Positions 26,754 to 61,999 are shown, counted from the stretch's first letter. The stretch: DNA of 64,000 nt from Candidatus Bathyarchaeia archaeon (GCA_050010515.1 JBEKKX010000006.1:11316-75315), one strand, 5' to 3'. Notes: generated by a model not told the origin, from the letters alone. Program-made: numbers and translations.

Positions 26754-29700
26754 TTATGTCGGATTTTCTTTATTCGCGATATTAATTAGCGCAATCTTTG
26801 CTGCCATTCGAACACGGCTTTCATAATTGTTATGAGAATCAGCCCTGTATTTAGAGAATTTTGGTAAAGGTGATTTTATTATATTTGTTAGAAGCAATAT
26901 CGCTGCGCTATCTCCGATTATGTCCAAAGACTCGATGATCTCGAGCCTATAATCCAAAGCCTCGAACCATTCCTCTTCCTTCGGAGGAATAAAATCTTCA
27001 TAAAGCCTTATCAACCTGTCTGTGGCCGATCTACTTGCAATTTTGCCCAACGTAATTACCGTCTCTTTCCAAAGCTCTGTCGGATTTCCGAAAGTTGGTT
27101 GGTTCATCCAATTTAAGCCCTTGGCAACTTGCCTTTTATCTTCAAAAATCTGCATTAAGCTCGTGATTGATTTAGCATTTCCTATTTCCCCGAGTGCCCG
27201 CACAATCGATATTTTTGCATTATAATCCGATTCTGTTGAAAGCAGGTTAAGCAAAGGTGTCACTCCAACTCCACTCTTAAGTTTACCTATGGAATCTATT
27301 GCGGATATTCTGACTTGCGGGTCGGAATCAGTCAAGAAAGAGATTAACGGTTTCATAACTTGATTTCCTCCAATTTCACCTAGCGCGTCAGCCACAGCCT
27401 GCCGTATTTTCGGTTGGCCGCTTTTCATAGGTACTATAAGCGTTTCAACACTATTTTGATCACCGATTTTTCCAAGGGCGATTATCGAATGAATCCGAGT
27501 TTTTTCATCGCTTGTTTTTACAAAAGAAGTTAGTAAATCGACCGCGCTCTTCGTTCTCATGCGGCCAAGTCCATCAATAGCCAGCAATCTAAGGTCGGGA
27601 TTCTTCTCTTGTTCTCTTGATATTTGTAGAAGAATATTTTCTGCTTCTCCCCCACCAATCATTTCAATAGCAAGCATAATCTCTTTTTCATATCGTCCTT
27701 CATTGCTTTTCATGAATTCGACCAAAGGTTCAATTCCCGAATCTATTCTTAACTCGCCAATAGCTTCGATTATACAATTCATGTGAGTAGATGTGCCCTC
27801 TCTCAAAACTTGCACTAGTAAAGGAAGTGCTGCTTCAACTCCTAAGGCTTGGAAGGCATCAAATATGTGTCGTCTGTTTTCTGTTTTCTTATTACAAAGC
27901 AGGTCGACCAGCGCGGGTATCGCTTTGTTACTACCAATCATTCCCAACGCAATTATAGCATTTTTTGCAACAATTGTATCGGTCTCGTTCAATAACCCAA
28001 TAAGTGGTGTTAATATGTCATTTCCGCCAATTCTACCCAGTGCTTCAATTGCTCGACTTCTAACTTGTTTATCGTCATCAGATAGCAACCCAAGAAGCGG
28101 TTTGATGGCTGCCCTATTCTGGGTTATGCCTAGTGCCTCTGAGGCGCTAATCCGAATCCACTTATTTGGACTTTTTAGTAGTTCAATAAGCGAAATAGTT
28201 ACCTTGTCATTCCAATTCTTCTGGAGATTTTCACTTGTAAAAAGTATGTTTCCTATAGATTCTGTGGCTGATGTTACAACCATTTCGTCGGTATCTTGAA
28301 GGGCGGTTAGCAGGAATTCAAGTGATTCTTCAGTACATTTTTTTCCTAATATCTCAATTACAGATTTTTTAGTATAAGCATCAGCGTTATCTGCCATTTT
28401 CAAGAGTTTTTTTGTTATGTTTTCGTTTTTTATCTTTGACAACGCTCTTACAATTGCATAACGCAAAGACAAGTCTTGTTTGTCCTTAAGTGCATTGATC
28501 AAGCCTTCGACTGCTTCATTACTTCCTACTTCTGATAAGGAATTAATTGCTTCGTTCCATACATCAGAATCTTCGTCATCTAGCGCTTTTATCAAGTACT
28601 CAGTAACTCTATTATCACCAAGTTCTCCTAGCGTCTTTATCGCAAAGACCTTAAAGTTGCCTTTAATCGCTAAATTGCCGATTATACCTATACTGGTTTC
28701 AGGCCTTTTGAGTTTACGTGATAAATTTATTACAAACGTTTCCCAGGTAGGTTCTTGGGACTTAAGGATCTCGTTTATCATGGATATATGAATATCCTGT
28801 TTTTTTCCTTCCATCATCATTACAAGATACTGAATGGTTCCCCTCATAATTCTAAATTTTTTCGCTTCATCGATAAAATTGTTCAAATCATTGATTATTT
28901 CTGCTTGTTCTTTTTTTTGCCATTGGTAATCAGATCCGTAAATTATCCATCTTGCCATGACATATTCGAAAAATGCCTCGTAAGCAAAGCCTACTACTCT
29001 ATCCCCTTCCCAATTAAGATAGGTAATAAGATTTTCGCTAAGTATCTTACTCAACACTGTTTCTAAATCAGCTGTTGTATCACCAAGAAGAGCTATTATT
29101 TCTGTTTTTGGCAGTTCGCTTTTTTGTTTCTTCTTAAGTTCGGCCACGAATTTGTACATTTGTTCTGTGGCTTTACTCTCTTTACCTGTATGTTCGAGCT
29201 TCCTTAACCAATATTGATCGAATATTTCAATTCTTCGAACGTCACTAGGAAGATTTTGACCTTCAAATCCTTCGGCAAGAAATCTCAACATTAGCGGATG
29301 CAAACAGATAGCCCTGAGTTCCTTTACAAGAGTTCCCTTGAGTTGATATAACCGCTTATATAATGTCCATGCTTCTTTGAACTCTTTTGCATTAAACTCA
29401 TTGAAGCGCAGGTCGTTTTTCATGAAAACGCGGCCTTTTTTTGAGTAAAGGCGATCCAGGAATCCTTCATTATCCTTCAGGAAGAATTCCCAATCCATGT
29501 CTCGACAGCTAATATAGAATTTGATTCTGTTACCGATATTATTTTGAACTATATCTGCCAAGTCTCTTTTGATCGCCTGTGGGTTAGGGGATTCGTTAAT
29601 TGCGTCTAAAAATACTATCAAATCAAAGTTTTTTTCGTTTAGGGCTTCATTCAAATTTGGCATTAACTGATCAAGATTAGGGTAATCCTGCGCGTTAAGA

Positions 29701-30938
29701 GCATCAATCAAATGTTGTTCAAGTGACCCGTTGATATACATGCTGTTTAGGAATAATACTGGTCGACTATCCATGAGCTTTTCAGATAAATGACAGAGAA
29801 GGTTAGTCTTTCCAATTCCGGCTTCGCCAACAACAACACATGCGTTTTTTTCTTGCTGATCTAGAAATTCGTCGAACTCTTTTTCTATCTCTGCGCGTTT
29901 GACGTACAGATTTGGAATGTACTTTTTGCTTCGATCAATTGCACTTCCTTTAAGGTCTTGCATTTGATTTATAACCTGTTCTTTGCATGTTTGCAATATC
30001 TTTAGGAATGTTATTTTAGGGTGAATAACAGGAGTTTGTTCGAGTAATGCTCTTGTGTACGCCGAAGCGACAAGTGCAGCGTAGGAATGCCAATCATCAT
30101 TTTTTCTATCATCAGAATAATCGCAAATGCCGCGCACTATTAAGTAGCCTACTTGTTGATCCCACGTGGCTTCAGCAGTACCTGACCCTTCCATTTCAAA
30201 AGCTCTTACCCCAAATTGATCTCTTAACTGATCTCGTTTCCGAGCATTTTTAAGAAGCGTGTTCCCAGATGCGACTGAGCCAATAAATACTCGAGGCTGC
30301 CCTGCAATTCTTTTAGGGTCTTCAGGATGATTAATGAAGATTTCAGGATTATTTGAACTAACTAGGATATCGGTTTTTTCTGAAGGACGCTCAATCTTTA
30401 GCTTTTTCATACCTTGCTTAATGAATTTAAGCCATGGTCGGTCTCCCTCAATTTCCAATGCTTCCATACGTCGAACTGAAGCAAGTAAATGCGAACTTGG
30501 GGGTCTTGGCAAGGGTCTAACAATGATATTTTCTGTTTCTTCCTTAACAAAATCATATTGTATTACGCCATTCTGACCAGATACTACTATGTCTCCTAAA
30601 CGAACATGCTCAGTGGTTTTTTCGGGGTTCGGTGCTCCTCCAGCGATACCTACCATTATAATTGAGTTAATGTTAGGGAAGTCTTCTAATAACATTGTAG
30701 TCTTACTAGCCGCAATGTTATTTCCCATTCCGGCAAGAAATAAAACTACAATATGCGTTCCTCCGTTTAATGCGTGTATTTGTCCTATACAATAAGTTCG
30801 TGGTGACCGAGCGCCTGTTGAATAAGATTTTGTTTTGTTCATCATTGCTTTTACAGCGGCATACTCCTCAGGCAATGCAGTAAGTATACCAATTGAAGCC
30901 TGCTTGCACTCCGGTGCGCTATCCACATTGCTTGACAT
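26754..30938 (-). CDS. NLR-like defence protein: PNP/MTA-SAH nucleosidase + STAND/NACHT-like NTPase + HEAT repeats
   Basis: GILTALPEEY, MVGIAGG, RLGDIVV, FEMEGSG, RGICDYSD (PNP_UDP_1); GEAGIGKT and LIVFLDAINE (Walker A/B); many AxxALGxIG repeats. Confidence 0.88.
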   Translation of the reverse strand: MSSNVDSAPECKQASIGILTALPEEYAAVKAMMNKTKSYSTGARSPRTYCIGQIHALNGGTHIVVLFLAGMGNNIAASKTTMLLEDFPNINSIIMVGIAGGAPNPEKTTEHVRLGDIVVSGQNGVIQYDFVKEETENIIVRPLPRPPSSHLLASVRRMEALEIEGDRPWLKFIKQGMKKLKIERPSEKTDILVSSNNPEIFINHPEDPKRIAGQPRVFIGSVASGNTLLKNARKRDQLRDQFGVRAFEMEGSGTAEATWDQQVGYLIVRGICDYSDDRKNDDWHSYAALVASAYTRALLEQTPVIHPKITFLKILQTCKEQVINQMQDLKGSAIDRSKKYIPNLYVKRAEIEKEFDEFLDQQEKNACVVVGEAGIGKTNLLCHLSEKLMDSRPVLFLNSMYINGSLEQHLIDALNAQDYPNLDQLMPNLNEALNEKNFDLIVFLDAINESPNPQAIKRDLADIVQNNIGNRIKFYISCRDMDWEFFLKDNEGFLDRLYSKKGRVFMKNDLRFNEFNAKEFKEAWTLYKRLYQLKGTLVKELRAICLHPLMLRFLAEGFEGQNLPSDVRRIEIFDQYWLRKLEHTGKESKATEQMYKFVAELKKKQKSELPKTEIIALLGDTTADLETVLSKILSENLITYLNWEGDRVVGFAYEAFFEYVMARWIIYGSDYQWQKKEQAEIINDLNNFIDEAKKFRIMRGTIQYLVMMMEGKKQDIHISMINEILKSQEPTWETFVINLSRKLKRPETSIGIIGNLAIKGNFKVFAIKTLGELGDNRVTEYLIKALDDEDSDVWNEAINSLSEVGSNEAVEGLINALKDKQDLSLRYAIVRALSKIKNENITKKLLKMADNADAYTKKSVIEILGKKCTEESLEFLLTALQDTDEMVVTSATESIGNILFTSENLQKNWNDKVTISLIELLKSPNKWIRISASEALGITQNRAAIKPLLGLLSDDDKQVRSRAIEALGRIGGNDILTPLIGLLNETDTIVAKNAIIALGMIGSNKAIPALVDLLCNKKTENRRHIFDAFQALGVEAALPLLVQVLREGTSTHMNCIIEAIGELRIDSGIEPLVEFMKSNEGRYEKEIMLAIEMIGGGEAENILLQISREQEKNPDLRLLAIDGLGRMRTKSAVDLLTSFVKTSDEKTRIHSIIALGKIGDQNSVETLIVPMKSGQPKIRQAVADALGEIGGNQVMKPLISFLTDSDPQVRISAIDSIGKLKSGVGVTPLLNLLSTESDYNAKISIVRALGEIGNAKSITSLMQIFEDKRQVAKGLNWMNQPTFGNPTELWKETVITLGKIASRSATDRLIRLYEDFIPPKEEEWFEALDYRLEIIESLDIIGDSAAILLLTNIIKSPLPKFSKYRADSHNNYESRVRMAAKIALINIANKENPT

Positions 30939-30999
30939 GCAACATAGATAAAGATAGGATACCTAAAAAACATGCGCTAATTTTAGATTGCCAGTTTTC

Positions 31000-33843
31000 T
31001 TAGCAAATGCCCAGTTTGTTCAATTGTTTCTTTACTGCGTCTTCTGCTGCATTTACTGCCTCTTTTAGTTTCTCTGGTTTTGTTCCGCCGCCCTGCGCAA
31101 AGTTGGGTCTTCCACCTCCGCCGCCTCCGATAATAGGCGCAACTTGACGGATTACTTCAGCTGCATTGAAGCCTTGGTCCACTGCTAATGATCCAGACAT
31201 AATAACTAGACCGGACGTTTTGTCAGTTTTTCCTCCGAAGACAGTTATTGTGCCTGGATCTTTTTTGATTAATTCACTGGCAAGCTGAATCATTGGTGCT
31301 ACGTCAACGCCAGAAAACTCTCGTCTTATTACTTTACATTCCCCGAGAATCGTTATTCCTTCTGTCGTTTCCGCAATAAAATCTGGTCTCACTTGTTTGC
31401 TTTCTTTTTCAATAACAAAGCTTTCCTTTTGGGCTAGTTCCTTGATTAGCTTGCGTTTCTCAACATTTGCCTCCTTGAGTTCTTTGACGATTTTCTCAGC
31501 CGTCTTATCCAACTTGTTCGCAGGAGCCGTCAAAACTTCTGAAACCTTCCAGAGCAGGCTTTCCTGTTTCTGTACTGCCTTTAGCGCTTCCAGCCCAACT
31601 GCGTAGCCTAAGCGTTCCACGCCGTCCTGTACGCGTTCGGTGTAGACGATTTTTACAAAGCCGACCTCGCCAGTGCTTCCCAGATGTGTTCCAGCGCACG
31701 CTTCAACGTCCCAATCGCCAGTTTTCACCACTCGGATATCTTTGCCAGGTACTGCACCGCCTTGGTAGAGTCTGAAGCCGTAACGTGCTTCCGCCTCGTT
31801 GCGCGGTAGCCAAGTTGTCTCAACCTTCATGTTAGCGCCTATCGCCTGATTAGCCAATATCTCAATTTTATGAACTTCTTCAGTGCTCAGTCTTCGGTAA
31901 TGTGAAATGTCAAGGCGTGAAGTTTCCAAGCCCTTCTGAGTGCCTGATTGCCAAACATGCTCGCCTAAAACCCGTCTTGCAGCACCATTAATTAGGTGCG
32001 TAACCGTATGCGCCTTCATCAAAGCGTAACGTCTGTCCCAGTTGAGAACGCCGTGAACAGTGCTGCCTTCTTTGAACGTTGGCGATGTGCTGAGTTTGTG
32101 CACTATGATTTTACCGATCTTTTGGGTGTCAACCACGTCAAACTTTGAAGCGCCAACTGTTAGCCATCCGTGGTCTGCTGGTTGCCCTCCGCCCTCAGGG
32201 TAAAAGCATGTTCGATCCAACACGACGTACTTGTCGTTGATTATTTTGAGGACTTTAGCGTCGAACTCACGCATATACGTGTCGGCATAGTACAGTTGTT
32301 CTGTTGCTGGCAGTTGCTCAGCCACTTTCTCGAGCGTTTTCTCGGCTTGGGTTTCTTCCTCTTCGACGGGTTTGGTTGCTTGCATGTGTCGTTTAGCGAT
32401 TAACGCGTAAAAGTTCTCCGGAACCTCCACTTGCACGCCTTCTTTTTCAGCTGCTTGCTTAACAATTTCTGGTGGAAGCCCATGCGAATCATACAGTTCT
32501 GTCAGCGTATCCATTGGTAGTTTGCCTGTGCCTTTTGCTTTCAGGTCGCTGGCTATTCGTTTAACCATGCCTTCTCCGCGTTTGAGCGTGTCTTCAAACT
32601 TTTCCTCCTCAACCTTGAGCATTTCAACGATTTCGTTTTGCATTTCTTTGATGTGTGGGAAATCTTTTGACCAATAATCGACCTGCATATCCACGATATC
32701 GTACAGTTTTGCTGGCTCCATGTTGAGGGTTCGCATTAAACGGTAAACCTTGCGGTACAGCAGCCGCGCTAAGTATCCTTCCTGAATGTTCGATGGCACA
32801 ACCCCTTCAGACAGCATGAAGCTTAAGGTTTTAGTGTGGTCAGTTACTGCCCAAGCATTCTCAATCGGAATCAACACTTTATCAAGCGTTTCCATGTCAA
32901 TTCCAGATAACTCTGACACACGTTTTCTAGTGACAAGCCGATTCGCGTTTTTGTCAACGCTAACCAGACCAGAATACTTCGCTACACGAGATAGAAAATC
33001 GTTGTCAACATTGGTTATTCCCGCCATGCTGAGAACTTTATCAAGCAAATTCCCGTAAATCGCTTGGAACAAGCTTGGCACACCCTGACTGATCCAGGTA
33101 AAGCGGTCAATGCCATAGCCCGTGTCAACCGTGCGAATAGGCAACTCGATGAAGTCGTCGCCGACAACCTTGTACTGCATGAAAACCAAAGTGCCAACCT
33201 CTAATCCCCGCACGATGCATTCCACGTCTGGACCAGCGTTGCCGCCGCCAACCCACACATCCTCCTTGTAGACGACCTCCTCAGATTTTATGCCAAGCAC
33301 TTCAGTGGCAAAGCGGTGGTGAAAACGCACTGTTTCATCCTTCCAGTACACTTCCTTGTCAGGATAGTTGAATGCGTGTGCTCCGCCCATCTCGAAAATG
33401 GTTAAGTGCCTGCCAAAAGTTGGTCCAGTATTCGAAATATCCGTCAGCCTAATGCATGGCTGAGAAATCACCAGCGGATTTGCAGGTGGCGGAGAAATCC
33501 CCTCGGTCACGTAGGGCTGGAAGTCAATTATACTTGCATGCGTTAAGTAAATGTCTTTTCGCCATCGGGCAACAACCGGATAAGGTTTAATGCGGGTATG
33601 CCCATTCTTCTCAAAAAACGAAAGAAACGCCTCCCTCATCTCGGAAAGGCTGAAACTTTTCTTTGTGGCTGGATTATTAATGAAAGTGTAGTATCCGCAT
33701 TCGTCGGAGCTGGATTCGCCGCAAGTTTCCTGCTCAGGGTTCTGAGTCCAATAATACTCACCGCATTTTGGACAATGCTTCCTAACGAAACCTTCCTGTT
33801 TAAAGAATGGAAGAGCATAATCTTCTGCCGTAAACTGCTTCAA
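31000..33843 (-). CDS. alaS: alanine--tRNA ligase (archaeal type)
   Basis: SQPCIR, RHLTIFEM, DTGYGIDR, HTVTH editing motif, EACAGTH, GGGGGRPNFAQGGG. Confidence 0.96.
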   Translation of the reverse strand: MKQFTAEDYALPFFKQEGFVRKHCPKCGEYYWTQNPEQETCGESSSDECGYYTFINNPATKKSFSLSEMREAFLSFFEKNGHTRIKPYPVVARWRKDIYLTHASIIDFQPYVTEGISPPPANPLVISQPCIRLTDISNTGPTFGRHLTIFEMGGAHAFNYPDKEVYWKDETVRFHHRFATEVLGIKSEEVVYKEDVWVGGGNAGPDVECIVRGLEVGTLVFMQYKVVGDDFIELPIRTVDTGYGIDRFTWISQGVPSLFQAIYGNLLDKVLSMAGITNVDNDFLSRVAKYSGLVSVDKNANRLVTRKRVSELSGIDMETLDKVLIPIENAWAVTDHTKTLSFMLSEGVVPSNIQEGYLARLLYRKVYRLMRTLNMEPAKLYDIVDMQVDYWSKDFPHIKEMQNEIVEMLKVEEEKFEDTLKRGEGMVKRIASDLKAKGTGKLPMDTLTELYDSHGLPPEIVKQAAEKEGVQVEVPENFYALIAKRHMQATKPVEEEETQAEKTLEKVAEQLPATEQLYYADTYMREFDAKVLKIINDKYVVLDRTCFYPEGGGQPADHGWLTVGASKFDVVDTQKIGKIIVHKLSTSPTFKEGSTVHGVLNWDRRYALMKAHTVTHLINGAARRVLGEHVWQSGTQKGLETSRLDISHYRRLSTEEVHKIEILANQAIGANMKVETTWLPRNEAEARYGFRLYQGGAVPGKDIRVVKTGDWDVEACAGTHLGSTGEVGFVKIVYTERVQDGVERLGYAVGLEALKAVQKQESLLWKVSEVLTAPANKLDKTAEKIVKELKEANVEKRKLIKELAQKESFVIEKESKQVRPDFIAETTEGITILGECKVIRREFSGVDVAPMIQLASELIKKDPGTITVFGGKTDKTSGLVIMSGSLAVDQGFNAAEVIRQVAPIIGGGGGGRPNFAQGGGTKPEKLKEAVNAAEDAVKKQLNKLGIC

Positions 33844-49069: not shown

Positions 49070-49094
49070 AAACAAAACAATAAAACAACCACAA

Positions 49095-49123
49095 TCCCTC
49101 TTTCTTTTTCTTTTTTATTTTTA
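49095..49123 (+). terminator. T-rich archaeal terminator
   Basis: CCCTCTTTCTTTTTCTTTTTTATTTTT after the stop. Confidence 0.5.
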
Positions 49124-49330
49124 AACGAAATTAATTCCGTTTCTATTTTGGCCTTATCAACCTTTGCTTTTATCCCTACCGTTTATGTTGGTCTTTAGCC
49201 AAGGCTTCTCTTAAGAAAAAGTGAACCTTTACATAAGTTGCTTTAAACTGAATTAGCCGATAATCCTGCTTTGTGGAAACGCTTAAAACTATCAGTTGAT
49301 ATTTTAGCGGTTGAATAGGAGAAATGCCTT

Positions 49331-53632: not shown

Positions 53633-53827
53633 TTAAGTATTTCGCTTTTGCTATTGTGGTTTTTTTGGTGTTTGTTTTGGGAGGTTTTGGGGGTGGTTTT
53701 TGGGGGTGTTTTTTTGGTTTAATTTTAAGTTGCGATTTTGTGGGTGGTGTAAGTTGCGACTTTTTGTTTGTGATTTGGTTATGTGTATTGCTGGCGGGTT
53801 ATTGGCGGGTGTTTGCATCAACACTGT

Positions 53828-53945
53828 TTCAACATAGTTCAACATAGAAATAATCCCCGCACTTTCAACATGAAACAGTGCTTTTTCTACATGGGAAGAG
53901 TTTAGTTTTTGTTGGTTTTAGCCAAGGTTTTAGAGCTTTCCCGAG
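53828..53945 (+). repeat. dispersed ~118-bp non-coding repeat, copy 2, at the left edge of the island
   Basis: About 90% identical to 7431-7547; also a 10-bp inverted repeat CACTGTTTCA (53822-53831) / TGAAACAGTG (53871-53880). Confidence 0.9.
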
Positions 53946-54095: not shown

Positions 54096-56198
54096 ATGAC
54101 TCTTCAGGATCTTATATTAAAAAACGCTTATGACTCAGACACCGACAATGTACTGACCGATTTCTATATTCCAGCATTAGCTAATTCTATTCTCTATGAT
54201 CGTCTAACAGGTTTTTTTTCTTCAACTACTTTAGCTGCGGCTGCAAAAGGTATTGTCGGTTTAATGAAAAATGGCGGTAGCATACGGCTAATTACAGGAG
54301 CAGTTTTTCAAGAGCAAGATATCAAAGCAATTAAAGAAGCTATCAATACGCCTGAAAAAATAATAGAGCAATTCATGTTAAAAGAAATCGATAACCTTGA
54401 AGAAGGATTCATAAAAGATCATGTTAAGGCTTTAGGTTGGCTTGTAGCGAAAGGAAAACTTAACATCAAGATTGCTTTTGTTCTTGATGACCAAGGTTTT
54501 CCTACAGACGTTAAAAGTTCATCTCGAAGCGGCATTTTCCATCAAAAAGTAGGGATTCTTGAGGATAAAGAAGGCAATAAATTATCATTTAGTGGGTCTG
54601 ACAACGAAACAATAAACGGTTGGCAACAAAACATAGAAGAATTCAAAGTTTTTCGGAATTGGGTTGAAGCTGAAAAAGAATATTTTGAATCAGACTTACT
54701 CAAATTTCAAAAATTTTGGGCTGGCACAGCAAGAAGAACCAAAATAATAGGTCTGCCAAAAGCCGTTCAAGAAGAACTTATCAAAATAGCTCCTAGCACA
54801 TTTGAAGAGTTAGATTTAGACAAATGGATAAGAAAAAACAAGCCCGTCAGCATTGAGCTTCGCGATTACCAAAAAAAAGCCGTAGATTGTTGGGTAGAAA
54901 ATGGACATCGAGGTATATTTGAGATGGCAACAGGGACAGGCAAAACTTTCACGGCACTAGCTTGTTTGAACACGACATTTTCTACCGAAAAAAAGTTGAT
55001 TGTTATAATCAGTAGTCCCTTTATCCACTTAAGTGAGCAATGGATTAGAGAAATTGAAAGATTTGGGTTAACCAGTGAAATAACACTTTGCGATAGTGAT
55101 CAAGCAAACTGGAAAAATGGTTTAGTTGATAATATTCTAGATGTGGAAAATGGCGTAGTAGATCGGTTAATAATACTTACAACGCACAATACGTTTTCTT
55201 CAGAAGATTTCATCGATATAATCGAGAAAAGCAAGAAAAGAGCACCGGATCAAAGATTTTTTTTAATAATTGACGAAGTTCATGGCATAGGAGCACCGAT
55301 AAGACAAAAAGGTCTAATTGAGGAATATGATTTTCGTTTAGGTCTTAGTGCAACCCCAAAGAGATGGTTTGACACTATTGGAACAGACAAATTGTTTGCG
55401 TATTTTGGTGATGTCGTCTATAGCTTTTCTTTAGAAAATGCAATAAAGGCTGGCTTTCTAACGCCTTACATATATAAACCGTATTTTACTACTTTGACCA
55501 ATGAAGAATTACAACAGTACGAATTAGAAACAAGAAAGTTGGTTAAAACCTATTATCACTCAAAAGATGATAACGAGAAAAATGATATTTTTACTCTGCT
55601 TTGTATAAAAAGGCAGAAAATAATTAGAAACGCCAATAACAAATTTAGCATTTTTAAAGATATATTAACAGAAATAAAAGAAGTAAAGCACTGTCTTGTC
55701 TATTGCTCTCCACAGCAAATTCGTGATGTCCAAAAAATTCTAAATAGCGTTGGAATTGTTCAACATAAATTTACACAAGAGGAGGGCACGAAGTCAGAAA
55801 ACCGCTTTAAAGGTTTATCCGAAAGAGACGTACTAATTGAACGATTTTCTGAGGGGACGTATCAGGCATTGGTTTCAATGAAATGTTTGGACGAGGGAGT
55901 GGATATACCGCCAGCTAGAATCGCGATTATGTTAGATAATTCAGGGAATCCGCGAGAATATATTCAAAGAAGGGGAAGAGTTTTGCGCAAGTTTGCAGGC
56001 AAGGAGAAAGCAACAATCTATGACATTATCGTAGAGCCTGTTTTAAAAGCGCAAGTTCCAGAACAATTGAAAGACATAGAGAGAAAAATCATAAAGAAGG
56101 AATTACAACGATACAGGGAATTTTCACAATCTGCCGAAAATGCAGAGGAGAACCTAGAGAAAATGCAAAACATTGAAGCAAAATACGGATTATGGTGA
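54096..56198 (+). CDS. PLD-like nuclease + SF2 DEAD/DEAH helicase (dnd-associated restriction-enzyme-like)
   Basis: IFHQKVGILED...SGSDNET (PLD-like); MATGTGKT, DEVH, LSAT, LDEGVDIP, QRRGRVLR. Confidence 0.88.
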   Translation: MTLQDLILKNAYDSDTDNVLTDFYIPALANSILYDRLTGFFSSTTLAAAAKGIVGLMKNGGSIRLITGAVFQEQDIKAIKEAINTPEKIIEQFMLKEIDNLEEGFIKDHVKALGWLVAKGKLNIKIAFVLDDQGFPTDVKSSSRSGIFHQKVGILEDKEGNKLSFSGSDNETINGWQQNIEEFKVFRNWVEAEKEYFESDLLKFQKFWAGTARRTKIIGLPKAVQEELIKIAPSTFEELDLDKWIRKNKPVSIELRDYQKKAVDCWVENGHRGIFEMATGTGKTFTALACLNTTFSTEKKLIVIISSPFIHLSEQWIREIERFGLTSEITLCDSDQANWKNGLVDNILDVENGVVDRLIILTTHNTFSSEDFIDIIEKSKKRAPDQRFFLIIDEVHGIGAPIRQKGLIEEYDFRLGLSATPKRWFDTIGTDKLFAYFGDVVYSFSLENAIKAGFLTPYIYKPYFTTLTNEELQQYELETRKLVKTYYHSKDDNEKNDIFTLLCIKRQKIIRNANNKFSIFKDILTEIKEVKHCLVYCSPQQIRDVQKILNSVGIVQHKFTQEEGTKSENRFKGLSERDVLIERFSEGTYQALVSMKCLDEGVDIPPARIAIMLDNSGNPREYIQRRGRVLRKFAGKEKATIYDIIVEPVLKAQVPEQLKDIERKIIKKELQRYREFSQSAENAEENLEKMQNIEAKYGLW

Positions 56199-56398
56199 AA
56201 CCCATGAGCGTTAGCAAGCGATTGTTAGAAGCAATTGATAAATCTGAGAATTCCGACGAAATAAAAGAGCTTCTTAAAACCCTTCTATTCATAGAACTGA
56301 GAAATTCAGAACGAGGAGATCTTCATTACAGCGAGGAATATGATAGGGTAATCAAACGGATATTTGGCGTTTCATTACAACCAGAGGCATCAGAATGA
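56192..56398 (+). CDS. small helical protein (resembles the small partner of CxC-ATPase systems)
   Basis: 68 aa, overlaps both neighbours; assigned mainly from its position between helicase and ATPase. Confidence 0.65.
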   Translation: MVKPMSVSKRLLEAIDKSENSDEIKELLKTLLFIELRNSERGDLHYSEEYDRVIKRIFGVSLQPEASE

Positions 56399-58392
56399 AA
56401 ATTGACTATATTTACCTAAAAAATTACCGTCAATATCGAGAAGCGCGAATTGACTTTGCAGGTTCACCAAACGAAAATTTTACTGTAATTGAAGGACCAA
56501 ATGGAGCAGGCAAAACAAACTTGCTAAACGCTGTTACATGGTGTCTTTTTGGAGAGGAAAAACATATCAACCTTATCAAATCTAAAGGACTTTCGATAAT
56601 TAATACAGTTGCCGTTGATCAAGCAAAAGAGGGCGAACTGCTTAATGTTAAAGTTGAAATTCAGTTCTTGAATAACAATAATAAACGAATAAAAATAATT
56701 CGTGAGTTGAAATACAAAAAACAGAAACAAACAACTATAGAGATACCTATGGCCCATCCACCTCCGAGTATTATCTTTGAAGGAGAAGGAGACTGGTCAC
56801 AACCACTTAATGGTGAAGAAGCGACATATCAAATTAAGAACTTGATACCACCATCTCTGGAAGAATATTTCTTCTTTGATGGAGAACGAATGAATGACTA
56901 TTTCAGAGATAATACGGGTAAAGACATTCAAAAGGCAGTTTTTAAAATATCTCAATTGGGATTGTTTGATGACTTAATAAGACACTTGACCGCAAGAAAG
57001 AATGAGTTCCTAAGGGCTGCAAAAGACTTAGACTCGAAAGGCAAAGAGCTTCAAGAATTTATAGAGCTTCAAGAACAATCCCAATCTTCTGACAATGAAG
57101 AACTAAAGAGCCTCATCTCAGCAGAACATGAGGCAGAATTATTGGATGAAAAATTGAACGCCCAGCTGAAAAACACATCGAAGGAAGACATAGAAAATCT
57201 TGTCAATAGGAGAGAGCAACTTATCAAAGACCTGCTATCAGTAAAGCAAGAAATCAAAGGGGTGGAAGATGATAAACTTCAGATATTGCACAAGAAGATG
57301 GCGACTATCCTCTGCCAAAGAGCTTTACTAAAGACTAAGACTCTTATCGATAATTCCAGGGCAGCAGGAAAAATACCTCCAAAGTTTGAAGCCATTTTTA
57401 TCCAAAGCCTTCTAGATAAAGGAAAATGCATTTGTGCGGCTGATATTTCTGGAAAAGATGAATATTCAAATAAACGTCGAAAGAAGATAGAGGTACTGTT
57501 AGAATCTGCGAAGTTATCAAAGGTAAGCACAGAACTAATTGAAACAAATGGTCAAATACAGGAGATGTTCTCGGGGTTAACAGGTTTTAGCGAGGATATT
57601 ATCGATTTTGAGAAGCGATTGAAAGTACTTGATGCACTAAGAGTTAAGACTGATAATGAAATAAAGGTTATAGGCCAGCAGCTTGAAACATGTGATTTAG
57701 AAAATATCAGACTATTAGAACAGCAAAAAAAGAAGAATTTAACAAAACTAAAGGAATTAACAGGAGATATTGCCATCTTGAGAGACCACCTGACGAGACG
57801 TGAAAAATTAATTAAGGACAAAAGAAGCGAGCTGGAAAAAGAGATCAAGAAAGATAATAAACACAAGTCTTTAATGGTAATGTTTGATCTTTGTGAAAAA
57901 TCCATTAAAGCCGCGGAAAATATCAAGGAAACAATTATGATTGAAATCAAAACAGAAATTGAGCAAAAAACTAGCAACCAATTCCTTGGGCTCATCTGGA
58001 AAAAAGAAACATTCAAAGGAGTAACAATCGATAACGAATATAACATCTCTGTACCCCTTATTTCAGGGCGTGATTGTTTCGGCACTCTTTCGGCGGGAGA
58101 GCGGCAGGTATGTGCGTTAGCTTTTATGTCTGCGCTCAATAGTGTTTCCGGATTTGATGTGCCAGTCATAATTGACACACCTCTTGCTAGAATATCTGAT
58201 GACCCAAGATTGAACATTGCGAAGAAATTGCCAACATATTTGCAAGGAACTCAGGTAACTCTCTTGGTAACAAAAGAAGAATATACCCCTGATGTTCAAG
58301 CAGCGCTTTCTACTAGGGTGGGGAAAGTTTATAAAATAAACGTTCAAGAAGAAAAGCTCGGTAATTTGGCAGAGGTGCAAATAGTAAAATGA
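56395..58392 (+). CDS. DndD/Rad50-like coiled-coil ABC ATPase with CxC hook
   Basis: GPNGAGKT, YFFFDGE, central KCIC, LSAGE signature, IIDTPLARI. Confidence 0.88.
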   Translation: MKIDYIYLKNYRQYREARIDFAGSPNENFTVIEGPNGAGKTNLLNAVTWCLFGEEKHINLIKSKGLSIINTVAVDQAKEGELLNVKVEIQFLNNNNKRIKIIRELKYKKQKQTTIEIPMAHPPPSIIFEGEGDWSQPLNGEEATYQIKNLIPPSLEEYFFFDGERMNDYFRDNTGKDIQKAVFKISQLGLFDDLIRHLTARKNEFLRAAKDLDSKGKELQEFIELQEQSQSSDNEELKSLISAEHEAELLDEKLNAQLKNTSKEDIENLVNRREQLIKDLLSVKQEIKGVEDDKLQILHKKMATILCQRALLKTKTLIDNSRAAGKIPPKFEAIFIQSLLDKGKCICAADISGKDEYSNKRRKKIEVLLESAKLSKVSTELIETNGQIQEMFSGLTGFSEDIIDFEKRLKVLDALRVKTDNEIKVIGQQLETCDLENIRLLEQQKKKNLTKLKELTGDIAILRDHLTRREKLIKDKRSELEKEIKKDNKHKSLMVMFDLCEKSIKAAENIKETIMIEIKTEIEQKTSNQFLGLIWKKETFKGVTIDNEYNISVPLISGRDCFGTLSAGERQVCALAFMSALNSVSGFDVPVIIDTPLARISDDPRLNIAKKLPTYLQGTQVTLLVTKEEYTPDVQAALSTRVGKVYKINVQEEKLGNLAEVQIVK

Positions 58393-59336
58393 GTGAAAAT
58401 AAAAAAATCGATCGACTAAGTGTTGAAAAAAATGATTTGAATAACTTTAATAGGCTTAAAGAAAAAGATAGCCCGTTTGCAGGTTGCCAAAACAAAGACA
58501 TCTTCTTAGCCGCAATGGTTACTGGTTTTTATCATGGCGTGAAATTAGACCTAATAAATAAGGAAGGATACGTAAGGGATGAGTATCTGCATCCCGAAGA
58601 TCGGGCATTAATAAATGCAATAGCAATCTTTGATGAAGGAGACCTTAAGGTTCTCCTCGATAAGCAAAAAGTATTTTCAATTGCAGAAAAATACGCAGCA
58701 GGTGGCATTGAGAGCTTAAAAGCTAAAGCATTAGGCACGGATGAATATGGGTCATATGCAAAAAGATTAGAAAGCGATATGTTAAAGGAATATGATCAAT
58801 TCCGAAAAATTTTGCCTGAAAAACCTGTTACTGCAGAAGACTTAGACGGCATTTCGGTCGAAGACTTAGCAGAAAAAGGAGAAACACATGCTATTGAATT
58901 CAAATCTTCTTTTATATGGGATTACAAGAATTCACAGCCTAGTAAGGACATGAAAATAGCCGTTGTTAGGGGAATTTCCTCTTTCATGAACTCAGATGGA
59001 GGTTATATGCTAATCGGAGTTGATAATAAAAAGAACCCAATGGGACTAGATAACGATCTAGCGCAAACTCATCAAAGTACTGATGAACTTGAACTAGCCT
59101 TAACTAACTCTGTCAGGGACTGCCTTGGAAAAGTAAATCTACCTTATATTAAGATCAAGTTCGATAAAGTCAATGACAAGCTTGTAATAATTGTAAGAGT
59201 TTATGCTTCTCCTCATCCTGTATATCTGAAAAGCGAAAATAAAAACCCTGAATTTTATATTAGAACAGGGAACAGTACTCAAAAATTGGATGTTAGTGAG
59301 GCACCTGACTATATTAAAGAACATTGGCCTGCATGA
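58389..59336 (+). CDS. DndE/dnd_assoc_4-like domain fused to Schlafen/AlbA_2 domain
   Basis: N-half SPF...DIFLAAMVTG...AEKYAAGGIESL; C-half GETHAIEFKSS, SFMNSDGGYMLIGVDN, FYIRTGNST. Confidence 0.78.
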   Translation: MSENKKIDRLSVEKNDLNNFNRLKEKDSPFAGCQNKDIFLAAMVTGFYHGVKLDLINKEGYVRDEYLHPEDRALINAIAIFDEGDLKVLLDKQKVFSIAEKYAAGGIESLKAKALGTDEYGSYAKRLESDMLKEYDQFRKILPEKPVTAEDLDGISVEDLAEKGETHAIEFKSSFIWDYKNSQPSKDMKIAVVRGISSFMNSDGGYMLIGVDNKKNPMGLDNDLAQTHQSTDELELALTNSVRDCLGKVNLPYIKIKFDKVNDKLVIIVRVYASPHPVYLKSENKNPEFYIRTGNSTQKLDVSEAPDYIKEHWPA

Positions 59337-59459
59337 TATACAATTCACTAAAAGCAGTGAAATCAATCATTGGCTCTAAGTAAAAATCACGCGCACGTGT
59401 GCTAAAGACTTAAAATCTTCTCTAAGAATACCTTACGATCGCTTAAGTACTCGTCAGCT

Positions 59460-60569
59460 ATGGCTGGGATCGTAATGACTAAACATGTCCTCTTAGTAAA
59501 ACCGAGATACTACTCAGCATACCCACCCTTAGGTCTGCTCAAACTTTCTACATATCAAAAGAAGTTAGGTAATACTACAGAACTTGTTTGGGGTACTGGT
59601 CAACCGGTTAAGGGCGAACCAGATATAATTTATGTAACAAGCCTGTTTACGTGGGCTTGGGAACCTGTATGGGAAGCTATCCGTTACTATTCCTTGAAAT
59701 TTTCAAATGCTGAGCTGTGGCTTGGAGGATTATATGCTTCTTTAATGCCTGAACATGCAGCATTAAGCGGAATAAAACCAGACCATATATTCCGAGGAAT
59801 ACATCCTCAAGCAGAATTTGAGCTCCCAGATTATGATTTGGTTCCTCAGTGGAATGAAAAAGAGGCCGCTAGCATAATTTTTTCTTCTAGAGGTTGCATA
59901 CGTTCATGCGTCTTTTGTGGCGTTCCAAAAATTGAAGGTAAACTTTGCTTGGAAAGAAATAACATTAAAGAGCAAATATGGCCTGGACATAAGCGATTGG
60001 TCTTTTTCGATAATAATTTATTGGCAAGTAAAAATCGGGAGAACGTTTTTTCTCAAATAAGAGAGATCGGTCTTGCGGTTGATTTTAATCAGGGCTTGGA
60101 TGCGAGATTAATTACTAATAAAGTTGCTAAGCAAATATCCGAACTTAAAATTGACCGCTTCGTCAGAATTGCGTATGATACATCAGAAGTAGGTCAATCG
60201 GTAAAAAAAGCCATTGAGCTTCTAAAGTCAAATGGCATTGATGGGCGAAATATTCTTGTTTATTTGCTCTATAATTTCATCGACACACCACAAGATTTCT
60301 TCGAAAGAGTCAAAAATGTCCTTAAATTAGGAGCAGTTGCTTACCCGATGCGTTTCCAGCCTGTTTACACGCTGAAAAAGAATAGTTACGTATCTCCACA
60401 GTGGGATCAAGTGAGACTTGCTGCTATTGCTACTGCACGCAGATTATTCGGTTCTGGTGGTACTTTCCCACCATATGCCGGAATGATGAAAGTTAAAGTA
60501 GAAGGTTGCAAAACCTTCGACGAAGCTTTTACAAACGGTATTTACAAAAGAGTGGAGGCAATTTTATGA
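59460..60569 (+). CDS. radical SAM enzyme with N-terminal cobalamin-binding-like domain
   Basis: PPLGLLKLSTY, TSLFTW, GGLYASL; SRGCIRSCVFC (CxxxCxxC); DNNLL, DFNQGLDARL. Confidence 0.88.
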   Translation: MAGIVMTKHVLLVKPRYYSAYPPLGLLKLSTYQKKLGNTTELVWGTGQPVKGEPDIIYVTSLFTWAWEPVWEAIRYYSLKFSNAELWLGGLYASLMPEHAALSGIKPDHIFRGIHPQAEFELPDYDLVPQWNEKEAASIIFSSRGCIRSCVFCGVPKIEGKLCLERNNIKEQIWPGHKRLVFFDNNLLASKNRENVFSQIREIGLAVDFNQGLDARLITNKVAKQISELKIDRFVRIAYDTSEVGQSVKKAIELLKSNGIDGRNILVYLLYNFIDTPQDFFERVKNVLKLGAVAYPMRFQPVYTLKKNSYVSPQWDQVRLAAIATARRLFGSGGTFPPYAGMMKVKVEGCKTFDEAFTNGIYKRVEAIL

Positions 60570-61999
60570 TTTGCTCTTGTTGCGGTTTTGAAATAGACGG
60601 TAAACCACATGAGATAGATAATGGACAAAAAAATGTATGTGAAAAATGTTGGAATAGCCCTGATATTTTTTTCCCAGAAAAAATCAGCCAAGACCAAAGG
60701 CTAAGCCTGCTTTCTAAAATGGCTCAAGAAATGGGTAACCCTAATGGGATAGTTGAAGTTACGGCAATCAAACTTGTTCAAAAAGGAATTGAAATGTTTG
60801 TAGGAAAAATGAAAATAACCGATATACTGAACCTTTACGAATTGGACAAATTTAAGGAACAGGAGCTTGAGGGATATCAACGTGAGCGATATGAAGAAAG
60901 AACATCGCAACTCGTTGATTATCTGGAGAAAAGCCCTTTGGCTGTAATGCCGGCTCTTTTAGTTGGCTTGCGTGAGACTAATTTTATACAAGTTAAGGAT
61001 GATCTGGGTATACTTAGGATAGACAGAAGAAAAGGGGCTATATGGATAATAGACGGCCAACACAGAGTTGGTGGATTTAGCAAAATACGCGATCAATTCT
61101 TCTTCACCAAAAAATTGGGCACTTCCTTATTTACCGATTTAATGGATTACGAGCTACCTGTAGTATTCATCGATTCTCAAGGTGCTTCTGAAAAAATAAA
61201 GTCAAAAGACGGCAAAGGCTCATTATCAGCAGAAGACATAGAAAAAACGATATTTTTTATCGTAAACAAAACTCAAAGAGGCATCAACCCCTCTCTAAAA
61301 GACGCGCTTCTGTATAGCATTAAGACTAGCGGGATCGAAGGTTTGGCAATAGCTGACGCGGAAGGTTGGCGGATACTTGGGGCTCAGATAGCTATAACCT
61401 TAAACTGTAAGGAAGGTTCACCCCTTCGGGCAAAAATAAACATAAGTGGTCAAAGAAACAGTGGAAAACCAATTCAGCTAAATTCATTTGTCTCCTCGCT
61501 TGAAATTCTATTTAAAGACAAAGAATTTTCAAATTTAGCTATTGATAAAAAAATAAGTTTCTTAGAAGCATATTGGTTGGCGCTCAGAGAGATAATTCCT
61601 CAAGCGTTTAAAGATAGAGAAGAACCAAAAGAAAACGGGGAGGAGTTTGGCAGAAGATTTGCTTTGAACATCAATGACAAAGCCAAGAAAAATAAAAGAG
61701 GAAAGGAAACCGACCAAAGATATTTACTTTTGACAGCCCTTGGGGTTTATGCCCTTCATCGTATAGCAAGGGACCTTCTGCATCTGGCAACAAAAAATAG
61801 CAGTAGCTTCAACCAACTGGAGGCAATAAAAAAGATTCTTGAACCACTCCAATCATTTGATTGGAAAGCAAACTCGTCACCACTTTCAGCCTTAGGAGGA
61901 ATGAAAGGGGTAAGTAAGGCCTACGAGCTTTTGTCGGAAACTATCGGTCAAGAGAGGTTAGCGCCGATTTTAGATGATGGGCTAAAAAAGTACTCCTAA
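60566..61999 (+). CDS. DGQHR-domain (DndB-like) protein with N-terminal Zn finger
   Basis: GYQR, WIIDGQHRV, IFFIVNKTQRGI; CSCC...CEKC; ATG at 60566 overlaps the radical SAM stop (ATGA) and follows GGAGG. Confidence 0.88.
   Translation: MICSCCGFEIDGKPHEIDNGQKNVCEKCWNSPDIFFPEKISQDQRLSLLSKMAQEMGNPNGIVEVTAIKLVQKGIEMFVGKMKITDILNLYELDKFKEQELEGYQRERYEERTSQLVDYLEKSPLAVMPALLVGLRETNFIQVKDDLGILRIDRRKGAIWIIDGQHRVGGFSKIRDQFFFTKKLGTSLFTDLMDYELPVVFIDSQGASEKIKSKDGKGSLSAEDIEKTIFFIVNKTQRGINPSLKDALLYSIKTSGIEGLAIADAEGWRILGAQIAITLNCKEGSPLRAKINISGQRNSGKPIQLNSFVSSLEILFKDKEFSNLAIDKKISFLEAYWLALREIIPQAFKDREEPKENGEEFGRRFALNINDKAKKNKRGKETDQRYLLLTALGVYALHRIARDLLHLATKNSSSFNQLEAIKKILEPLQSFDWKANSSPLSALGGMKGVSKAYELLSETIGQERLAPILDDGLKKYS

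Follow-up and report, generated by a model that had tools for sequence, protein, structure and literature searches.

A radical SAM–DGQHR gene pair adjoining a PbeABCD-type system in a Bathyarchaeia archaeon as a candidate DNA-modification module

Known prokaryotic self-marks on DNA comprise S-adenosylmethionine (SAM)-dependent N- or C5-methylation, phosphorothioation, 7-deazaguanines, and some glycosyl and acyl groups. To our knowledge, no radical SAM enzyme (rSAM) has been described as marking genomic DNA for a restriction system. Among the systems closest to the locus considered here, PbeABCD was reportedly described by Xiong et al. in 2019, and CxC systems are said to have been first described by Krishnan et al. 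in 2020 (NAR 48:10045). In 2024, the Aravind laboratory equated PbeABCD with the CxC-ABC-ATPase systems; in its scheme, the HKD-SF2 protein is called PbeA, a rapidly evolving small disordered protein PbeB, the CxC ATPase PbeC, and the cognate of DndE PbeD (PMC10853773). In the 7-deazaguanine (Dpd) systems, DpdA inserts preQ0 into DNA only with the help of the DGQHR ATPase DpdB (PMC10164549). Here, we analyze a 64,000-nucleotide (nt) stretch of DNA, hereafter the window, from a Candidatus Bathyarchaeia archaeon. It carries six genes at positions 54096–61999, namely a PbeABCD-type unit and, behind it, a gene pair encoding an rSAM and a DGQHR protein.

All six open reading frames (ORFs) are encoded on the + strand. 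Genes 1–4 overlap by 7, 4, and 4 nt, and the stop codon of the rSAM gene overlaps the ATG of the DGQHR gene at 60566 by 4 nt. Between them, 123–138 nt separate the end of the PbeD gene from the rSAM start, depending on the rSAM ATG chosen. The 4-nt overlap together with the gap after genes 1–4 thus divides the locus into two translationally coupled units, as proposed in the initial annotation. The favored and most likely rSAM start is ATG 59475, because the closest database homologue (P0001) also comprises 364 amino acids (aa). The DGQHR start was placed at 60566 and not at TTG 60506, since an M-x-C-x-C-C-G motif is conserved at, or a few residues from, the N-terminus in 17 of 17 orthologous partners. 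Profile searches upheld the initial domain calls (PLD-SF2 helicase, CxC-hook ABC ATPase, DndE-like-Schlafen, rSAM with CxxxCxxC, DGQHR). The Dnd-like scaffold had, however, been presented as part of a candidate new system. The scaffold is real, but genes 1–4 match the scheme in PMC10853773 and are therefore already described as PbeABCD. The new part is the coupled rSAM–DGQHR pair at 59475–61999, and this second unit alone is the candidate novelty. We give an even chance to the reading that the locus is a mobile, restriction-modification-like island in which the rSAM–DGQHR pair is a DNA-modification module serving Pbe.

The DGQHR partner matched TIGR03187 (DGQHR) with 2.3e-29 and 103 bits, above the cut-off of 58.85, and Pfam DndB with 8.8e-19. 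Its scores were 33 bits against DGQHR_dnd_1 (cut-off 450) and 39.6 bits against NF041060 (DpdB; cut-off 300). D163, G164, Q165, and R167 of the DGQxR motif are invariant in 18 sequences. The first 40 residues consist of a Zn-ribbon and an FFPEK motif, with C3, C5, C6, C25, C28, W29, F35, and F36 invariant. Complex prediction with paired alignments gave a score of 0.70 for rSAM and DGQHR (0.70–0.72 in three runs) and 0.00 for the best control. Of the solved complexes, 58 of 80 scored at this level, as did 2 of 110 mismatched pairs; these counts are only rough because our own alignments were used. The runs shared at least 72% of the contacts, and the partner reached a predicted local distance difference test (pLDDT) score of at least 71. 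In the modeled interface, the Zn-ribbon/FFPEK region of the partner lies on rSAM residues 59–77, 91–101, and 296–308, invariant positions included. Two natural fusions fit this interface: P0244 carries a Zn-ribbon motif in front of the rSAM, and P0248 a ParB-like domain behind it (3.5e-25). The modeling supports the view that rSAM and the Zn-ribbon-DGQHR protein would bind each other. Extra DGQHR paralogues without the Zn-ribbon motif stand in tandem 3′ of the partner in three loci (L007, 3618–7550; L009; L016, 1513–4177). A DGQHR paralogue behind the Zn-ribbon partner in L015 (11069–14911) is a long form of 791 aa.

The CxxxCxxC motif of the rSAM corresponds to C141/C145/C148 in the 364-aa form and is invariant in 55 diverse sequences. 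Pfam PF04055 (Radical_SAM) matched the window protein with 0.026 and its relatives with 1e-6 to 1e-7. The AlphaFold2 (AF2) model of the rSAM has a pLDDT of 94.9, and its top folds in the PDB are cobalamin-dependent rSAMs, namely MgmA (9ccb; 2.1e-13, TMq 0.61), TsrM, CysS, TokK, and OxsB; AprD4 and the methylthiotransferases MiaB, RimO, and MtaB come next. PF02310 (B12-binding) showed no match on the window rSAM and weak matches, 1.6e-6 to 9.5e-4, on some relatives. Of the original B12-rSAM assignment, the fold and the weak matches on relatives stand, but the window protein itself lacks a Pfam B12-binding match. The resemblance at the level of the modeled fold suggests cobalamin dependence. C345 is the sole further invariant cysteine in close rSAM relatives, and none is invariant in the N-terminal domain. 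We rejected an assignment as a MiaB/RimO methylthiotransferase because the N-terminal domain has no Cys triad; moreover, there was no match to those families at cut-off. The word index contains 1732 homologues, nearly all of them annotated "hypothetical". Counted as representatives at 50% identity, the family comprises 8963 members at E ≤ 1e-3, 3010 at E ≤ 1e-10, and 955 at E ≤ 1e-30, and it is found in archaea, bacteria, and phages. In the members P0300, P0330, and P0331, the rSAM sequence is split by an intein that contains a LAGLIDADG homing endonuclease.

We then considered the gene neighborhoods of the rSAM family. ORFs were called and clustered in 80 cellular loci, representatives were annotated with Pfam, NCBIfam, and PADLOC, and all were re-scanned with cluster-built profiles. 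The context counts refer to 77 loci including the window, with L009, L029, L037, and L068 left out because the rSAM ORF was not called. The rSAM and DGQHR genes were adjacent in 18 of the 80 fetched loci. Within two genes of the rSAM, we found a DGQHR, GHKL, or ParB-like gene in 56 of the 77 loci (DGQHR in 22, a GHKL (HATPase_c_3) ATPase in 25, and a ParB-like gene in 11, two loci with two partner kinds being counted twice) and none of the three in 21. Within six genes, Pbe genes were present in 19 loci, DrmA/DrmB in 5, a set of SNF2 plus ParB-like genes in 7, and a HerA/NurA-like pair in 11, 3 of these with a type IIG enzyme. The loci closest to the window come from Bathyarchaeia. The pair recurs beside the four-gene unit, a check proposed in the initial annotation; it does so in 12 other loci and in four arrangements, lying upstream, downstream, divergent, or swapped relative to the Pbe genes. 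Near-identical rSAM–DGQHR pairs join two Pbe subtypes (PbeA identity of ~60% and ~32%). The two subtypes and the varied gene orders argue for a repeated, selected association and against one inherited operon. On the rSAM tree, which leaves out L066 (293 aa), the members with Pbe are spread over five or more separate clades and those with DISARM over three or more, and the window rSAM falls into a 13-member clade whose members are all DGQHR-partnered.

Two of the DISARM loci, L017 (Methanoculleus sediminis S3Fa) and L018, have the order rSAM-DGQHR-DrmA-DrmB-PLD-unknown, and L045 has the order GHKL-rSAM-DrmA-DrmB-unknown. The fetched parts of these three loci yielded no methylase. Across 21 Pbe- or DISARM-bearing loci, we tallied the Pfam families of 109 other proteins of at least 180 aa within 9 kb. 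The 25 families with the highest counts, out of 123, included neither a DNA methylase nor PAPS_reduct; generic Methyltransf_25/31 occurred in 3 of the 109 proteins and phage integrase in 3. With the N-terminal half of P0275 as phmmer query, a C5 methylase was seldom found near the rSAM, namely in 1 of the 77 cellular loci and in 5 of the 70 viral ones, and it was adjacent only in L118. The c40/c42 proteins behind DrmB and the c7, c11, and c13 proteins had no Pfam or PADLOC match, and the c6 proteins had only weak PADLOC matches, to mad8 and HerA; at the corresponding place in Marinitoga camini virus 1, the neighbors bear the annotations HerA and Rad50/Mre11-associated exonuclease. A protein of 700–860 aa without Pfam or PADLOC match follows DrmB or DrmC in L017 (18769–21038), L018 (18924–21038), L045 (8415–10580), and L021 (11745–14327); in L017 and L018 it reaches the end of the fetched stretch.

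Fusion proteins bear on the possible substrate. More than 120 extra residues are present in 22 of the 150 best rSAM representatives, and 10 of these long forms were scanned with Pfam. P0275 consists of a complete C5 cytosine DNA methylase (residues 25–345, 5.3e-57) followed by the rSAM, and P0379 of the rSAM followed by C5-methylase motifs IX–X (1.4e-14). The rest are three intein-interrupted rSAMs and five proteins without an informative extra domain. In DISARM, a methylase accompanies the DrmA/DrmB genes. CxC systems carry cytosine methylases according to excerpts of PMC10853773. The rSAM therefore shares kinds of loci with, and in two proteins is fused to, a DNA cytosine methylase. This changes the original proposal that the rSAM acts in place of the sulfur machinery: it occupies the usual place of a DNA methylase in Pbe/CxC and DISARM loci, and some relatives are fusions with C5 methylases.

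The sulfur and 7-deazaguanine enzymes were sought in the island and beyond. Profile scans revealed no DndA, DndC, tRNA-guanine transglycosylase, or methylase domain in the six proteins or in 10 flanking ORFs, in agreement with the initial annotation, which had also called for genome-wide searches for dndC and dpdA. The host assembly (2.38 Mb, 66 contigs, an estimated 98.5% complete) contained no match to DndC (TIGR03183), and its sole PF01507 match is the GMP synthase GuaA. None of 11 carrier genomes, own genome included, had DndC at cut-off; weak matches below the cut-off occurred in two methanogen carriers and likewise in control methanogens. DpdA (NF041059) and a C5 methylase were also not found in the own genome. 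A C5 methylase above cut-off is present in 4 of 10 other carriers and is therefore not a required companion. The distribution was patchy when 401 genomes were sampled evenly across the class, with the rSAM in 18 genomes and in 5 of the 40 from the host's own genus (G000 included). PbeC was present in 5 of the 401, 4 of which carried the rSAM on the same contig ~0.5–2.7 kb away, compared with 14 of the 396 genomes without PbeC, kin among these genomes not being independent.

Under the preferred reading, PbeC and the DndE-like DNA binder would scan DNA, and PbeA (HKD-SF2) would translocate and cut it. In the window variant, a Schlafen-type nucleic-acid-binding or nuclease domain would be joined to the DndE-like protein. 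Unit 2 would be a heteromer of a class-B-like rSAM and a Zn-ribbon-DGQHR NTPase, and the DGQHR protein might load or position the rSAM on DNA, by analogy with DpdB powering DpdA. We infer DNA as the substrate, a protective mark, cobalamin use, and the rSAM chemistry as follows: the enzyme would covalently mark resident DNA, the most plausible product being a base that bears a C-methyl or another alkyl group, with cytosine as the leading guess, and this mark would spare resident DNA from unit 1.

The support for this reading is throughout contextual or predicted, and several observations weigh against it. The pair occurs without a recognized restriction module in 6 of 21 DGQHR-partnered loci, and 63 of 70 called IMG/VR loci contain a solo rSAM form, mostly of 280–310 aa (L098–L162); therefore, the rSAM family does not need Pbe. 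Three loci pair the rSAM with a type IIG enzyme bearing its own methylase, which misfits a simple replacement of the methylase. The Pfam tally displays 25 of 123 families, so that single methylases may be hidden. The C5-methylase fusions amount to 2 of the 10 long proteins scanned, and they might reflect a requirement of the rSAM for 5-methylcytosine, a base that would be missing from the own genome. AprD4, among the top fold matches of the rSAM, has the same fold without using cobalamin. Finally, MgmA, the best structural match, methylates a protein, which makes a protein or RNA substrate conceivable.

The last point leads to the explanation that the rSAM modifies protein or RNA, for example a component of the system or tRNA, as its nearest structural relatives do. 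The best folds belong to enzymes acting on proteins, peptides, and small molecules (MgmA, TsrM, CysS, TokK) or, for MiaB and RimO, on tRNA and ribosomal protein; next door a Schlafen-type domain is encoded, and some solved relatives of this domain are tRNases (SAMD9). We nevertheless regard this explanation as improbable. The recurrent partners of the rSAM are the DGQHR, GHKL, and ParB-like families, which are viewed as DNA-acting NTPases; the rSAM is found joined to C5 DNA methylases and to a ParB-like domain; and C345 as the only invariant cysteine outside CxxxCxxC in the close set leaves no MiaB/RimO-type second cluster.

The pair without Pbe or DISARM and the solo relatives in viral loci would also fit an autonomous defense or effector module, which would, for example, produce a modified or chain-terminating nucleotide or deplete nucleotides, and which would cluster with Pbe, DISARM, and other systems merely as cargo of defense islands or proviruses. 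A gene for an NT5C-like nucleotidase lies beside the rSAM in three loci (L027, L037, L073). According to excerpts of PMC10853773, ParB-superfamily proteins may be nucleotide-degrading effectors, and radical SAM defense effectors exist, namely Ophion and, as cited in the excerpted Ophion preprint, the viperins. Against this explanation, which we consider unlikely, adjacency to Pbe or DISARM arose repeatedly, in separate rSAM clades and several orders and usually as immediate neighbors, and the rSAM is next door in four of the five PbeC genomes of the even sample. The fusion to a complete C5 DNA methylase points to a DNA substrate, and no alternative modification gene recurs in the Pbe and DISARM loci. 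Furthermore, none of the PADLOC models recognized the rSAM at E ≤ 0.1, and no viperin structure was among the 50 fold matches listed. The NT5C (deoxyribonucleotidase) matches directly beside the rSAM are borderline (L027; L037, 4–1245; L073, 11365–12741), and some members of the rSAM family may act on nucleotides.

Metagenome data from peat addressed the mobility of the locus. None of the listed sequencing runs containing the stretch is recorded as RNA. In the runs X10 and X12, contigs of abundant close relatives follow the host flank with 3–5% differences and then diverge from the window at 53723–53902. Summed contig depth, a crude measure, was 160–280 (X10) and 62–70 (X12) for the host flank and ~5 for the island and terminase region. 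The island thus fits a strain-variable mobile element. Homologues of the terminase large subunit (TerL), with 27–33% identity, share the fetched locus with the system in L001, L004, L006, L007, and L012, 1 to ~9 genes away. At such low identity in five Bathyarchaeia loci, the system may be cargo of diverse proviruses. A protein of ~485 aa with ABC_tran and GNAT matches follows the terminase in L001 (2928–4385), L004 (2911–4434), and L007 (10213–11667), which is odd beside a packaging gene.

The rSAM family itself reaches into viruses. In the ESM Atlas, the nearest clusters bear the automatic name "B12-binding domain-containing radical SAM", and one of them is 82% viral among its few members with a record. 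Marinitoga camini virus 1 encodes a full-length homologue with 45% identity in its lysogeny region, whose neighbors are annotated as HerA and Rad50/Mre11-associated exonuclease. Other viral homologues occur in Bacteroides LoVEphage, Methanomassiliicoccales viruses, and Clostridium phage phiCT453B (GenBank). The phiCT453B protein (L164, 5965–6840) is a 291-aa solo form encoded after replication genes, ~3 kb upstream of the HNH-terminase genes. These data raise the alternative that the pair is a virus-derived DNA hypermodification by which a provirus protects its own DNA as counter-defense, with Pbe as separate superinfection-exclusion cargo. Consistent with it are the terminase gene directly downstream of the pair, the five further loci with TerL homologues, the far lower contig depth of island and terminase region in both runs, and the viral homologues. 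The contig, however, ends in the terminase gene, so that a provirus is only suspected. Moreover, cellular loci link the rSAM tightly with Pbe and DISARM and not with virion or replication genes, which a cognate pair fits better. This alternative appears quite unlikely to us; it also makes the rSAM DNA-modifying and differs from the restriction-modification-like island only in whom the mark serves.

Extended to the whole family, our proposal is a new class of DNA-modifying enzymes. They would be loaded on DNA by an NTP-driven clamp (DGQHR, ParB-like, GHKL) and would attach a carbon substituent to a base by radical chemistry that may depend on cobalamin. The reaction could be direct C-methylation or, in enzymes fused to a C5 methylase, extension of 5-methylcytosine. 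In archaea and bacteria, such marks would label self DNA for Pbe, DISARM, and further restriction modules, and in phages they would be protective orphan marks. We put this generalization forward tentatively, as possible and short of probable. If true, it suggests a modification partner for Pbe/CxC and DISARM loci without methylase or sulfur genes; for CxC systems, excerpts of PMC10853773 raise this partner as an open problem. The reading is testable because some carriers are in culture, namely Methanoculleus sediminis S3Fa, Methanohalophilus euhalobius WG-1MB (L023, with the order Pbe-GHKL-rSAM), and Marinitoga camini virus 1.

Unit 1 is the known PbeABCD / CxC-ABC-ATPase-DndE system with a Schlafen/AlbA_2-fused PbeD. 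Protein 1 matched PADLOC PbeA over its full length (residues 3–688, 1.7e-232), as well as Pfam ResIII (1.3e-21) and Helicase_C (5.5e-14). The Pfam PLDc_2 match was weak (0.0028); an HQK motif is visible in the translation, and GTGKT and DEVH motifs were located by script. Against TIGR04095 (dnd_restrict_1), PbeA scored 4.2e-134 and 448 bits, under the 600-bit cut-off. The second protein had no family match in the Pfam, NCBIfam, or PADLOC scans. It is kept between PbeA and PbeC in eight loci with 37–60% identity (42–60% in L001, L002, L004, L005, L010, L013, and L014; 37% in L065). Protein 3 matched PADLOC PbeC (9.6e-123) far ahead of DndD (1.3e-49) and reached 155.5 bits against TIGR03185 (DndD), under the cut-off of 245.85. 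Its Walker A motif GPNGAGKT is at residue 34 and the C-I-C hook at 345–347, and a CxC or CxxC hook is conserved in 16 of 16 PbeC homologues.

The C-terminus of protein 4 matched Pfam SLFN_AlbA_2 (residues 165–300, 1.4e-18), and its N-terminal part matched TIGR04062 (dnd_assoc_4) below cut-off (residues 23–114, 9.6e-5). The AF2 model (pLDDT 90) shows two strand-helix-helix units, residues 9–48 and 58–115. With Foldseek, the N-terminal 120 residues superposed on E. coli DndE (4lrv_C; TMt 0.69, prob 1.0, E 0.09), and matches to SAMD9/SLFN domains ranged from 8e-6 to 1e-3. Residues E165, E170, K172, and D223 are nearly invariant; therefore, the Schlafen/AlbA_2 domain may be catalytic, by analogy with Schlafen and SAMD9 RNases. 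The two-domain DndE-like plus Schlafen make-up is common to ~110 of the 120 protein 4 homologues listed, nearly all of which have a precomputed PF27807 match.

The features of the locus and its edges are compiled in Table 1. The guanine-cytosine (GC) content is 0.35–0.39 in the island and 0.42–0.51 outside. The left flank contains ordinary genes, encoding an Ssb-like OB protein, an LPG-synthase-type membrane protein, a GNAT protein, and malic enzyme. A tRNA gene as a marker of an integration site was not found in the 64-kb window. A scan for sigma-70 promoters and intrinsic terminators gave counts near the shuffled expectation, with bacterial-type models that are inapplicable to an archaeon. 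Further upstream, a short repeat at 49090–49127, at the 3′ end of an 893-aa PQQ/Ig-like ORF, was flagged and skipped in the read mapping, and several small joints lie close by at 48.4–49.0 kb. Two very long minus-strand ORFs of 1394 and 947 aa occupy 26754–33843.

Table 1. Coordinates of the two-unit locus and its borders in the window
Feature	Position	Strand	Remarks
PbeA (HKD/PLD-type nuclease domain + SF2 helicase)	54096..56198	+	700 aa
PbeB-like small protein	56192..56398	+	68 aa, overlaps both neighbors
PbeC, CxC-hook ABC ATPase (DndD sister)	56395..58392	+	665 aa
PbeD variant, DndE-like N-domain + Schlafen/AlbA_2	58389..59336	+	315 aa
Intergenic gap dividing the two coupled units	59337..59474		sequence inspected directly
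rSAM with N-terminal Rossmann (B12-binding-like) domain	59475..60569	+	364 aa; alternative ATG 59460 gives 369 aa
Zn-ribbon + DGQHR (DndB/DpdB-like, ParB superfamily) partner of the rSAM	60566..61999	+	477 aa
145-aa ORF, then terminase large subunit cut by contig end	62195..63998	+	Terminase_6N 3.5e-14, Terminase_6C 1.2e-5
Approximate left edge of strain-variable low-GC island	53760..53900		GC 0.43–0.44 to 0.37, and contig divergence

No description of the rSAM–DGQHR pair was found in the searched literature, whose scope left outside the 2020 CxC paper, the supplements of PMC10853773, and most subscription papers. In PMC10853773, "radical" is tied only to DndC, and in the ProPhylo paper DGQHR appears only in the phosphorothioation table. 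The Tiamat preprint ("radical SAM" in the references only), the BREX 2026 paper (no "radical"), and the EVE-domain paper contain nothing on this pair. The rSAM defense system Ophion consists, according to excerpts of its preprint, of rSAM, PHP, and PRTase and is thus unlike the pair.

Compared with known systems, unit 1 has the same four components in the same order as PbeABCD / CxC-ABC-ATPase-DndE. It differs in the C-terminal Schlafen/AlbA_2 domain of PbeD, neither word occurring in the main text of PMC10853773, and in its neighbors, which are rSAM and DGQHR here and DndCDEA or cytosine methylases in the excerpts of that paper. From the Dnd systems, the locus has relatives of DndD (PbeC), DndE (the N-terminal domain of PbeD), and DndB (DGQHR). 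We rejected its assignment to the phosphorothioation systems: DndC is absent from island and genome, all three Dnd relatives score under the equivalog cut-offs, and TIGR03233 (DndE) did not match the window protein. A Dpd 7-deazaguanine system was rejected likewise, as the own genome has no DpdA and the partner scores far under the DpdB cut-off. With DISARM, the family shares loci in which relatives of the pair precede DrmA-DrmB-PLD or a GHKL gene and rSAM precede DrmA-DrmB; unlike DISARM and C5-methylase restriction-modification systems, the window is without DISARM genes, and its candidate modifier is an rSAM. The class B rSAMs MgmA, TsrM, TokK, CysS, and OxsB have in common with the window enzyme an N-terminal Rossmann domain, an rSAM barrel, and CxxxCxxC (TMq 0.55–0.63). 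They differ from it in sequence (11–15% identity), in length, the window protein with 364 aa being much shorter, and in context, which is defense and DNA here and not cofactor or natural-product biosynthesis. Finally, the locus resembles DpdA–DpdB in that a DGQHR/ParB-superfamily protein is encoded beside the enzyme inside an island of restriction-modification-like make-up, the Dpd counterpart being required for DNA modification (PMC10164549); the window enzyme is, however, an rSAM and not a transglycosylase, and its DGQHR partner has an extra N-terminal Zn-ribbon.

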